Of a DNA stretch of 64,000 nt, positions 1,855 to 59,992 are shown in pieces (position 1 is the first letter of the stretch; each line of letters opens with the position of its first letter). The notes under the pieces are model-generated. The model had not been told where the DNA came from. It was given only the letters and a program-made list of their open reading frames with translations, and ran no database searches. The DNA is from Wigglesworthia glossinidia. GTDB lineage: Bacteria; Pseudomonadota; Gammaproteobacteria; Enterobacterales; Enterobacteriaceae. The stretch is taken from NCBI GenBank assembly GCA_030827005.1, contig JAVBJL010000004.1, positions 7,559 to 71,558 on the forward strand. The letters run 5' to 3'. A program made the translations under genes and the position numbers.

Positions 1855-2253
1855 ATGTTAAATATTTTAAATATTTCAGGATCTGCATTGCTAGCACAAT
1901 CTTGTCGTATCAACGTGAGTGCTAGTAATATAGCAAATGCAGAAAGTTTCGATAAAAATGGCATTCCGTATCAAGCGAAACAAGTAATTTTTAAGTTAGA
2001 TACTAGTAATTGTAATAATAAAATTGGAGGAGTAAAAATAAAAAAAATTATCAACGATAAAAAGCCATGGAAACTAATATACGATCCATACAATCCAAAT
2101 GCAGACGAGTACGGTTATATAAAAACTTCAAATGTAAATATAATCGAAGAAATGGTAAATACAATTTCTGCATCTAGAAGCTATCAAGCGAATATTGAAG
2201 TAATTAACACAGCTCGCACTATGATATTAAAAACATTGAACTTAGGACAATAA
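1855..2253 (+). CDS. flgC: Basal-body rod protein FlgC
   Basis: ASNIANAES; YDPYNPNADEYGY; NVNIIEEMVNTISASRSYQANIEV. Confidence 0.97.
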   Translation: MLNILNISGSALLAQSCRINVSASNIANAESFDKNGIPYQAKQVIFKLDTSNCNNKIGGVKIKKIINDKKPWKLIYDPYNPNADEYGYIKTSNVNIIEEMVNTISASRSYQANIEVINTARTMILKTLNLGQ

Positions 2254-2283
2254 GTATTAAATTTAACTTAAAATAAATAAAAC

Positions 2284-3123
2284 ATGAATATTCCAATTAA
2301 GCAATCCAACATACAAGAATTAAACGAAAACAATATTTATTTAAATAAAATTCGCAAATATCATATAAACAAACGAAATATTTTTCCAGAGAAATTTTCT
2401 CAAAATATGAAAAATAAATTAGAAGAAAATCAGAATTTTTCCGAAATATATCATATTGAAGATCCGAAATATCTTCAAAATAATCATAATAACAGTATAA
2501 AAACAAATGTTAATAATATTGAATCATTAACTAATAATTTTTTAAAAATGATTTTAGTTCAAATAAAAAATCAAGATCCAACACATCCTATAGATAATAA
2601 TCAATTGACATCACAAATGACGCAAATGCATACAGCATTAGGCATAGAAAAACTAAGTAATATTATGCAAGAAATAAAAGATACAAGCAATCACAATCAA
2701 GCAATTAATTTATCTAATTGGATTGGTCATAAAATTATGACACACGGAAATCCAATTATATCATTTGAAGGAAAAAAAGATTATGGATTCAAGTTACCTG
2801 CAAAATCCGACCATGTAATACTAACTTTAACAGATTTATCAGGTAATTCTTATGTGGCAAATTATTATAATTTAAATCCAGGTATTTACAAATTAAATAT
2901 TAATGAAACTAAGACAACACCAGAAATAAATCCAATTAAATTAAAAAATAACGAGCTTTTTAAAGTAAATTTTGAAGCATTCAATACCGACGGTAATCGC
3001 CCAGAAATTTATGCGCTTAAATCACAAAAAATAAAAAATATCATCTTTAAAAATGGTGAACCCAAATTAGCCTTAGAACAAGGAAATTTAGCAGATGTAA
3101 AAGACGTTATTTCTATTGAATAG
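2284..3123 (+). CDS. flgD: Hook-capping protein FlgD with N-terminal extension
   Basis: FLKMILVQIKNQDPTHPIDNNQLTSQM motif; operon order. Confidence 0.93.
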   Translation: MNIPIKQSNIQELNENNIYLNKIRKYHINKRNIFPEKFSQNMKNKLEENQNFSEIYHIEDPKYLQNNHNNSIKTNVNNIESLTNNFLKMILVQIKNQDPTHPIDNNQLTSQMTQMHTALGIEKLSNIMQEIKDTSNHNQAINLSNWIGHKIMTHGNPIISFEGKKDYGFKLPAKSDHVILTLTDLSGNSYVANYYNLNPGIYKLNINETKTTPEINPIKLKNNELFKVNFEAFNTDGNRPEIYALKSQKIKNIIFKNGEPKLALEQGNLADVKDVISIE

Positions 3124-57445: not shown

Positions 57446-58249
57446 ATGCGATCTTGGATTAATGGAATTGAAACAGATAAAATTTCTATAGTTAATAGAA
57501 GTTTACAATTTGGAGATGGATTTTTCACGACGTTTCCGTGTCTTAACGGAAAAATTCAATTTTTAAAAAATCACTTTCAAAGACTTTTTTTATCAGAAAA
57601 GAAATTACTTTTCAAAAGAATTAATTTTTCTGCATTATACGCAGAAGTTAAATTCGCATCTAAATGCATATCTAGTGGAATTATAAAAATTATAATTATA
57701 CGAGGGAACTCCGTACGAGGATATAAAACATCCCAGTGCGCAGAACCAGTACGCATTATTATATTAACAGAAAATTATTTAAATTTTAAAAAAATAAAAA
57801 AAAAAGGTGCAAATTTGTACTATAGTCCTATTAAAATACCAAGAAATCCATTATTATCTGGAATTAAGCATAACAATAAAATTGAACAGATTTTAGCATC
57901 GATTCATTTAGAAAAATCTAAAAAAGATGAAGCAATAATATTGGATAGAAAAGGATTTATTGTAGAATGTTGCGCATGTAACATTTTTTGGAGAAAAAAT
58001 AATTTTGTATTCACCCCGAGCTTAAAATATTGTGGAGTTCCTGGAATTATTAGAAAAAAAATAATCAATATTCTACCAAAACTTGGATATAAAGTAATTA
58101 TATCTTTTTTTAAAAGACATGATGTAATTCTTGCAGAAGAAGTTTTTATAACTAATTCGATTATTTCTATAATACCCGTAAGAATTATTGACAACCAACA
58201 TTTTTATAAACGTACTTTATTCAATAAAATTCGAAATTTCTTTTGGTAA
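57446..58249 (+). CDS. pabC: Aminodeoxychorismate lyase
   Basis: RSLQFGDGFFTT; PLP-lysine GIKH; ECCACNIFW; GVPGIIR. Confidence 0.96.
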   Translation: MRSWINGIETDKISIVNRSLQFGDGFFTTFPCLNGKIQFLKNHFQRLFLSEKKLLFKRINFSALYAEVKFASKCISSGIIKIIIIRGNSVRGYKTSQCAEPVRIIILTENYLNFKKIKKKGANLYYSPIKIPRNPLLSGIKHNNKIEQILASIHLEKSKKDEAIILDRKGFIVECCACNIFWRKNNFVFTPSLKYCGVPGIIRKKIINILPKLGYKVIISFFKRHDVILAEEVFITNSIISIIPVRIIDNQHFYKRTLFNKIRNFFW

Positions 58250-59291
58250 TGCGATATTTATTTATGACAATTTTATATAAAACAAAAAAACAAAAAATAT
58301 CTTTCATATATGCATGGATATTAACATTAATTTTTTTTTTAAAATACATGTTTTTTCTATAGAACCTTTAAATATTACAAATGAAACATTAATTACTATA
58401 CCTAAAGGTAGTACAATGCTTTATTTACAAAGACTTATGGAAAAAAAAAATATTATTAGAAGCAACTCACATCTTTTATCTATTTTAGTTAAAATCAATC
58501 CGAATTTAAAAAATATTAAAGCTGGAACATATGCTTTACATCCAGGGATGAATATTAAAGATGCACTGAATATATTCGTAATAGGTAAAGAAAAACAATT
58601 TTCCATCCAATTTATTGAAGGATCAACCCTAAAAGACTGTTTAAATATTTTAAAAAATTCTCCAGAATTACAACAAGATATAGATATGAATAACTTAAAT
58701 AATTTATCAAAACAATTAGGAGATAAATCAGAAATATTATTAGAAGGAAGTTTATATCCAGATAAATACCTCCATACTAAAAATACAAAAGTCAGCGAAA
58801 TATTAAAACGTGCAAAACAGAACATGACAAATATTTTAAAAGAAATATGGGAAACTAGAGATAAAAATTTACCATACGAATCCCCTCAATCATTATTAGT
58901 TATGGCATCTATTATTGAAAAAGAATCAGCATTAAAATATGAACGATTTAGAATATCTTCTGTATTTGTTAATCGATTAAAAAATAAAATGAAATTACAA
59001 TCAGATCCTACTGTAGAATACGGCGTTAAACTTTTACAACCTAATAAAAAAATAACTTATAAAGATTTTAAAATATCAACTCCTTATAATACTTATATTA
59101 TTTACGGACTGCCAAAAACAGCAATATCCATGCCAAGCTTGGAATCAATTCAAGCTGCTGCACATCCAGAGAAAAGTGATTATTTTTACTTTGTTTCTAC
59201 TGGAAATGGCGATCATATTTTTAGTCAAGATTTCGATAGTCATAAACAAGCAGTTAAAAATTATCGAAGATGGAAAAAAGGAAATAAATAG
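58249..59291 (+). CDS. mltG: Endolytic transglycosylase MltG, frameshifted at a T10 tract between its membrane anchor and the catalytic ORF (58314-59291)
   Basis: ATG overlaps the pabC stop (TAATG) and encodes basic residues plus a transmembrane helix; adding one T joins it to KIHVF...; [27 protein letters not shown] present. Confidence 0.9.
58331..58340 (+). repeat. T10 homopolymer at the mltG frameshift
   Basis: Ten consecutive T at 58331-58340. Confidence 0.95.
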
Positions 59292-59992
59292 TGCAAGGAA
59301 AGTTTATTGTAATCGAAGGATTAGAAGGTTCTGGAAAAACCAATGCTATTTCAAAAATAGTACACATATTAAATCAACAAGGTATAAAAAACATAATTTT
59401 CACACGAGAACCAGGAGGAACACCACTTGCAGAAGCTTTACGCACATTAATTAAAGAAGGAGTAGGATACGAACAAATTACTGATCATGCCGAGCTGTTA
59501 ATGATATATGCAGCTAGGATACAATTAGTAGAACGTATAATTAAACCAGCACTAAGTCAAGGATCTTGGGTAGTTGGAGATCGTCATGATCTTTCTTCTT
59601 TAGCATATCAGGGAGGAGGAAGGTGTATAAACGAAAAATTATTAAAAAATTTAAGAGACTCTTTCTTAGGAAATTTTTATCCGGATTTTACTTTATATTT
59701 AGACATACCTCCTATTATGGGGCTAGCAAGAATTAGAGCACGTGCTATAGTAAGAGCTCAAATCAGAGAAAAAATTAATAAAATTAAAAGAACACATTCA
59801 CATGACATAAAAAATGAATTAGATAGAATAGAAATAGAACCGATATCTTTTTTTGATAGAACAAGGAAGCGATATCAAGAATTAGCTGAAAAATACGAAA
59901 ATATTGTCACTATCGATGCCAGTCAATCTTTAGAAAAAGTAAATTTAGAAATAAAAGAAAAACTATTACATTGGTTAAAAATAAAAAATTAA
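59291..59992 (+). CDS. tmk: Thymidylate kinase (GTG start, LID insertion)
   Basis: EGLEGSGKT; REPGGT; [15 protein letters not shown]; LDRIE. Confidence 0.97.

Follow-up and report, generated by a model that had tools for sequence, protein, structure and literature searches.

The window analysed here, a 64,000-nucleotide (nt) stretch of a Wigglesworthia glossinidia genome (assembly GCA_030827005.1, contig JAVBJL010000004.1), encodes the cell-wall enzyme MltG (YceG) in two pieces, with the membrane anchor and the enzyme in different reading frames that meet at a run of ten thymines (T10). Analysis of this site favours, with moderate confidence, a real frameshift whose correction, during expression, comes chiefly from slippage of RNA polymerase on the run; we infer both the slippage and the resulting enzyme dose. 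The site was compared across four lineages, namely the window's own genome, W. morsitans (WGM; 719,535 bp, single contig), W. brevipalpis (WGB; 697,724 bp, single contig) and L022, a Logan contig from SRR14633898 with 93% amino-acid identity to WGM. The window represents a third Wigglesworthia lineage beside WGM (from Glossina morsitans) and WGB (from G. brevipalpis). The elements of the split gene are as follows.

58249 to 58362, plus strand: mltG anchor frame, 37 amino acids (aa), from the ATG at 58249 (open reading frame (ORF) list, hydropathy, alignment with the in-frame N-termini of L022, protein P0123, and of W. brevipalpis, protein P0003)
58264 to 58266, plus strand: ATG aligned to the mltG start of the W. 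morsitans lineage and L022 (alignment; L022 gene at 2001-3035)
58314 to 59291, plus strand: mltG/yceG body ORF from ATG 58314, 325 aa, anchorless (ORF list, Pfam; public 325-aa protein P0001)
58331 to 58340, plus strand: T10 homopolymer, the frameshift site, coding the Phe residues that end the anchor helix (sequence, alignment)
58335 to 58341, plus strand: T TTT TTA, a -1 slippery heptamer of the X XXY YYZ type in the anchor-frame register (sequence reading)
58441 to 58450, plus strand: A10 run within the mltG body, in frame (ME KKN) (sequence, relatives)

The anchor frame opens at an ATG that shares bases with the pabC TAA stop (TAATG, 58247-58251), as the earlier note on this DNA had read; that note let the frame end right after the run, but it continues past T10 for seven further codons (LKYMFFL) to a TAG at 58360-58362, giving the 37 aa in total. 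The body frame is open from 58281, directly after a TAA at 58278-58280, with its first ATG at 58314 and its stop at 59289-59291, and the switch between frames must fall within their 79-nt overlap, 58281-58359. A single T added to the run (T11) joins both frames into a 347-aa protein from ATG 58249, or into one of 342 aa from ATG 58264 (MTILYK...), which, from its alignment with the relatives, is likely the conserved start rather than 58249. Runs of A or T of at least ten are scarce, with only 139 in the 719 kb genome, and the presence of T10 at the frame junction is more than a chance coincidence, because only about 2% of 79-nt intervals would be expected to hold such a run.

The fused protein matches the YceG domain (PF02618) with 260 bits, above the gathering score of 32.4 (E 3.6e-77), covering profile positions 1-274 of 275. 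Its SIIEKES motif aligns with SIIEKET of Escherichia coli YceG (PDB 2r1f) and places the catalytic Glu at residue 224, encoded by codon 58917-58919; in E. coli MltG the catalytic residue is E218 (PMC8135044). At the N-terminus a Lys-rich stretch is followed by a hydrophobic helix with a Kyte-Doolittle mean of 2.3-2.4 over 15 residues. The best 19-residue mean is 1.92 for the fused N-terminus versus 0.96 for the product starting at 58314, and the same 19-residue scan finds no hydrophobic segment in that product. The anchor-like segment (Kyte-Doolittle 1.9-2.4) thus lies in the other frame and becomes contiguous with the enzyme only after the addition of one nucleotide in T10, whereas in L022 and W. 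brevipalpis the two are contiguous at the DNA level. By domain and catalytic motif the gene is assigned to the YceG family, with a contiguous anchor predicted only once the frame is corrected. After that correction it shares with E. coli MltG the YceG domain, the SIIEKE(T/S) motif and the order transmembrane (TM) helix, LysM-like part and catalytic part; in E. coli, however, anchor and enzyme form one ORF, while in the window they occupy two frames. The earlier proposals that T11 would yield a 347-aa MltG with its catalytic Glu, and that the product from ATG 58314 is anchorless, are therefore both borne out. The ATG at 58314 itself spans two anchor-frame codons, GCA TGG (Ala-Trp); it is specific to the window's lineage and therefore not a conserved start, the corresponding W. 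morsitans codons being TTG TTT TTG in the anchor frame.

The state of the run in the four lineages is as follows.

Window's genome: T10, mltG shifted
WGM: T10, mltG shifted at the same site
L022: T11, mltG intact, 344 aa (P0123)
WGB: T11, mltG intact, 348 aa

In the four-lineage alignment the sole indel from the start codon onward, relative to the in-frame relatives, lies inside the T run, and the run at 58331-58340 indeed separates anchor from enzyme as first proposed. The orthologue comparison that the earlier note had called for therefore places the T10 shift in W. morsitans as well and finds intact T11 genes in L022 and W. brevipalpis. Divergence at synonymous sites (dS) is 0.37 between WGM and L022, 0.71-0.77 between the window's genome and these two, and 1.05-1.18 to WGB, which points to the topology ((WGM, L022), window), WGB. 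The shift is thus kept in two lineages diverged at dS 0.71 and is not universal. Placed on this dS-derived topology, the T10 and T11 states (T11, T10, T10, T11) mean that the tract length has changed at least twice among the four lineages. All four keep an open anchor frame with the motif YK.KKQKI.FIY followed by the hydrophobic helix.

In W. morsitans the body frame of mltG holds no ATG, GTG or TTG over 52 codons after the upstream stop, and a complete enzyme would need frame correction there, since the frame lacks a canonical start before codon 53. The public protein records of this MltG (locus L003, 1528-2517) differ in their start, of which there are three, ATA 1528 (329 aa), ATA 1564 (317 aa) and ATG 1657 (286 aa), the shortest form going under the name 'putative aminodeoxychorismate lyase'. 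The frameshifted anchor is recorded in none of them, and the 37-aa and 39-aa upstream peptides are absent from a 15-billion-protein collection on exact look-up.

A sequencing or assembly artefact, in which the true genome would read T11 and the gene would be intact, is unlikely, and it earns the least credence of the explanations weighed here. Homopolymer length is the commonest consensus error and the window's genome is a 10-contig draft; the deposited assembly nevertheless agrees on T10 with an independently built Logan contig (L023) of the same lineage, and T10 recurs in W. morsitans, whose genome was finished from Sanger shotgun reads at 9.4-fold coverage. Moreover, three genomes from different projects show about ten such breaks each, several of them at shared sites.

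These other breaks were identified by tblastn cross-comparison of the three Wigglesworthia genomes, followed by a Pfam check of the edited junctions. About ten genes are frameshifted per genome in all three genomes, nearly all at A or T runs of 9-14, and the mltG case is accordingly not unusual but belongs to a well-described endosymbiont phenomenon. The cases located in the window's genome are listed below.

der, contig C6, about 37.1 kb: T13, site shared with W. morsitans (T13 versus T10)
recJ, contig C8, about 32.5 kb: T11, site shared with W. morsitans (T11 versus T12)
recD, contig C10, about 67.5 kb: T11
lipB, contig C10, about 177.2 kb: T11
lpxK, contig C10, about 88.5 kb: A10, W. morsitans copy also broken, at a different site
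dapF, contig C10, about 64.1 kb: T9
nusB, contig C8, reverse-strand coordinate 71741: A10, from the one-base edit screen only
fliJ, in the window at about 16442: T10, site shared with W. morsitans (T10 versus T13)

A one-base edit within the run restores a single Pfam domain across the junction in der, recJ, nusB, lpxK and lipB. The broken set includes der and lpxK, normally essential genes. A separate one-base edit screen for longer ORFs returned 67 matches, many of them false through the merging of adjacent genes or short chance upstream ORFs. The closest parallel to mltG is mrdA (PBP2), outside the window on the minus strand, where a T9 at G000:C10:181630-181638 lies inside the membrane anchor and the N-terminal 27 codons (MKDKLNYYKQYF...IIISFF) are out of frame with the body (FFFIMLLTGILIF...). 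This T9 and its shift are identical in the window's genome, W. morsitans and W. brevipalpis. As in mltG, a poly-Phe run in the anchor helix leaves the anchor out of frame with the body, and the two genes suggest that the poly-Phe (TTT) stretches of anchor helices are natural hotspots.

The mltG body remains under purifying selection. Comparison of the two T10 genomes, the window's and WGM, gives the body a ratio of non-synonymous to synonymous divergence (dN/dS) of 0.145-0.149, at a dS of 0.71. The genome median, taken over 608 orthologue pairs, is 0.179, and 66% of the pairs exceed the mltG ratio. Polarising the codon differences of WGM and L022 against the window's sequence assigns 19 synonymous and 5 non-synonymous changes to the shifted WGM branch and 20 and 4 to the in-frame L022 branch, so the shifted branch shows no relaxation. 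The evidence indicates that mltG is still alive as a gene, because its dN/dS lies below the median, relaxation is absent and the anchor frame stays open in four lineages.

This selective record bears on a rival account, in which the lesion is left uncorrected and either an anchorless MltG is made from ATG 58314, as a cytoplasmic or functionless protein, or mltG stands at the first step of pseudogenisation. ATG 58314 does open a 325-aa ORF that runs without a break through the complete YceG domain, the form found in public collections; homopolymer indels are usually the first step of symbiont gene loss (PMC3017870); and 7 of 31 genomes have no mltG match, with several small-genome relatives lacking the gene. 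MltG, however, is bound to the cytoplasmic membrane and comprises a TM helix, a LysM-like subdomain and a catalytic domain, and the main product of YceG-family enzymes is about seven disaccharides long (PMC8135044; bioRxiv 10.1101/2021.03.06.434200). The protein needs its anchor because it is held by the TM helix and acts outside the cytoplasmic membrane, and an anchorless cytoplasmic MltG would not reach its substrate. In addition, the 58314 start is not conserved, the W. morsitans body frame offers no canonical start at all before codon 53, the anchor ORF is intact in both shifted lineages, and selection on the body is as described above. An uncorrected lesion is consequently given only a small chance. 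The broader claim that a functional MltG depends on frame correction gains support from the W. morsitans T10, the T11 relatives and the purifying selection, while the slippage or phase-variation step within it stays at the level of inference.

The explanation favoured here, slippage by RNA polymerase, starts from the loss of one base, T11 to T10, in the poly-T that codes for the Phe-rich end of MltG's single anchor helix. The DNA as a result encodes a 37-aa anchor peptide, with the LysM-like and catalytic parts in another frame. RNA polymerase would slip on the A10 template and add a U to some of the transcripts, and ordinary translation of these corrected mRNAs would give a full-length, membrane-anchored endolytic transglycosylase of 342-347 aa at reduced dose. 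A second run enters the balance 100 nt 3' of T10, namely the in-frame A10 at 58441-58450. The yield of correct mRNA would be the product of a +1 event at T10 and no event at this A10, at which slippage would undo part of the rescue. The A10 is also present in W. morsitans and L022 and is interrupted in W. brevipalpis. At the U10 run of the transcript no intrinsic terminator is predicted, and promoter-like matches are no more frequent than in shuffles.

Slippage of this type has precedents. In Buchnera and Blochmannia, 12-50% of transcripts are frame-corrected by RNA-polymerase slippage (Tamas 2008 and Wernegreen 2010, as relayed in PMC5009743 and PMC3017870), and in these symbionts poly(A)/poly(T) frameshifts persist across species without rate acceleration. 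Conserved homopolymer frameshifts are documented in Blochmannia (PMC3017870). Slippage by E. coli RNA polymerase, as in enterobacteria generally, occurs on runs of at least 9, with a poly(T) bias and with insertions at least as frequent as deletions (PMC6260861). The correction required at mltG would be a +1 insertion in a T run, in line with this reported bias.

A ribosome could in principle make the same repair. Mainly translational correction, by a -1 shift on U UUU UUA (58335-58341) to give ...LIFFLKIHV..., draws on a canonical X XXY YYZ heptamer that both T10 lineages carry in the register required, and the use of ribosomal frameshifting for correction in organelles and endosymbionts is taken up by Atkins 2016. 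As in dnaX-type -1 frameshifting, the U UUU UUA is read in the zero frame, at the point where slipping back by one base would join anchor and enzyme. In contrast to dnaX-type sites, the mltG site has no downstream hairpin or pseudoknot and no evident upstream Shine-Dalgarno-like enhancer. Specifically, the 80 nt downstream hold no stimulatory structure, with minimum free energies of -6.2 and -3.1 kcal/mol and z-scores of 0.16 and 1.09 versus shuffles in the two T10 lineages, and a reading of the upstream sequence reveals no clear Shine-Dalgarno-like stimulator. The T11 relatives further show the site to be a decayed in-frame run and not a dedicated frameshift signal. Transcriptional slippage is therefore ranked first and the ribosomal shift second, because downstream structure is lacking and the other broken genes call for corrections of either sign, +1 or -1, at plain A or T runs, which polymerase slippage fits better. 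Mainly translational correction is accordingly judged improbable; as an adjunct to polymerase slippage, the -1 shift on U UUU UUA may contribute a little.

Correction might also reside in the DNA. The polyploid symbiont population could mix T10 and T11 chromosomes through replication slippage, with the T11 copies supplying MltG and the assemblies reporting the majority, a form of heteroplasmy or phase variation. The tract-length changes on the tree, at least two among four lineages, would suit such a mixture, as would the standing of homopolymers as replication-slippage hotspots (PMC3017870). Phase-variable contingency genes of Campylobacter, Haemophilus and Neisseria likewise carry a homopolymer near the 5' end of the coding region whose length toggles the frame and differs between lineages; an obligate, vertically inherited symbiont, in contrast, has no obvious need for on/off switching. 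The 15-billion-protein collection holds no T11 protein of the window's lineage or of W. morsitans, and all three contigs of the window's lineage give the T10-type product, both weak points in that contigs drop minority alleles. Such a mixed population is given a slim chance.

Polymerase slippage itself must be weighed against several contrary points. Baranov et al. 2005 (PMC1088944) found A/T runs in W. glossinidia to be equally frequent in coding and non-coding DNA, and took this as a hint that the species may lack transcriptional slippage. The anchor segment, at about 25 codons, is too short for a selection test of its own. A genome of 25% GC, where TTT codons outnumber TTC codons by 8661 to 804, readily yields Phe/Ile/Leu-rich hydrophobic peptides, and conservation of the anchor alone thus weighs little. 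Finally, T10 and T11 differ between close lineages, and the shift could be recent in each of them, with the observed selection a legacy signal. The conserved frameshifts, for their part, argue in the opposite direction to the suggestion of Baranov et al.

A further reading extends slippage into regulation and, in our assessment, is a long shot. Here the mltG T10/T11 and the mrdA T9 would be maintained settings and not tolerated lesions. Placed at equivalent points of the two anchors, the U tracts would serve as 'dosage valves' that tie the supply of anchored cell-wall elongation enzymes to slippage, and so to the level of uridine triphosphate or the speed of transcription, and toggling between T10 and T11 over evolutionary time would adjust how much MltG is made in one tsetse host or another. 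Products of transcripts that did not slip, the 37-aa membrane peptide and, in the window's lineage, an anchorless enzyme, might then have roles of their own.

Set beside the tract-frameshift genes of Buchnera and Blochmannia, mltG shows the same configuration. It belongs to an AT-rich obligate insect symbiont and carries a one-base indel in an A/T run of about 10, its frames are otherwise intact, and more than one diverged lineage keeps the shift, with no rate acceleration. Four features of the slippage class are found at this gene: the indel falls within the run, the frames on either side are uninterrupted, a diverged lineage retains the shift, and the body evolves under purifying selection. 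Cell-wall genes are affected in Buchnera too, among them mur genes, and the independent shifts or reversions on the tree of Blochmannia erfK and ytfM resemble the history of the mltG tract (PMC3017870). The present case differs in that the gene is Wigglesworthia mltG and the break falls at the anchor-enzyme junction, so that the uncorrected products would be a small membrane peptide and, in the window's lineage only, possibly an anchorless enzyme. It differs also in the kind of evidence at hand, as corrected transcripts are demonstrated in Buchnera and Blochmannia, while for Wigglesworthia mltG they are proposed by analogy.

Within the genus, Rio et al. 2012 (PMC3280448) reported that in 6 of 11 annotated W. 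morsitans pseudogenes the damage amounts to no more than one or two indels, and raised the possibility that processes at homopolymeric tracts might restore function in Wigglesworthia. These pseudogenes come from the same genus, but mltG/yceG occurs 0 times in the main text of that paper, and the W. morsitans mltG record is not annotated as frameshifted.

The split gene lies in a compact gene string with the order fabG, acpP, pabC, mltG (yceG), tmk and holB. The window, with a GC content of 25%, sits on contig C5 of the source assembly, which comprises 719,035 bp in 10 contigs. The two immediate neighbours of mltG are given below.

57446 to 58249, plus strand: pabC-like class IV aminotransferase, 267 aa (ORF list; Pfam Aminotran_4, E 6e-38)
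59291 to 59992, plus strand: tmk (thymidylate kinase), GTG start (ORF list, Pfam)

The last base of the mltG stop is also the first base of the tmk GTG start (TAGTG, 59289-59293), and together with the junction at pabC these one-base overlaps at both ends of mltG suggest translational coupling along the gene string. The neighbourhood also varies within the genus. In W. brevipalpis (locus L004, 1119-1477) pabC is absent between acpP and mltG, and it is present at this position in the window's genome, W. morsitans and L022, a distribution that agrees with the folate and chorismate differences described by Rio et al. 2012 (PMC3280448).

No new mechanism is put forward here: mltG is newly flagged, and the general possibility for Wigglesworthia had already been raised by Rio et al. 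2012 (PMC3280448). The finding serves mainly for annotation and as a T10/T11 test case. Sister lineages with T10 and T11 provide a clean, testable case for slippage in a genus where Baranov et al. 2005 suggested none. In public annotation, a plain 325-aa protein in the window's lineage, and a 286-aa stump or ATA starts in W. morsitans, mask the need for frame correction if the enzyme is to reach the membrane. Recognising the shift changes the inferred cell-wall capability of Wigglesworthia.

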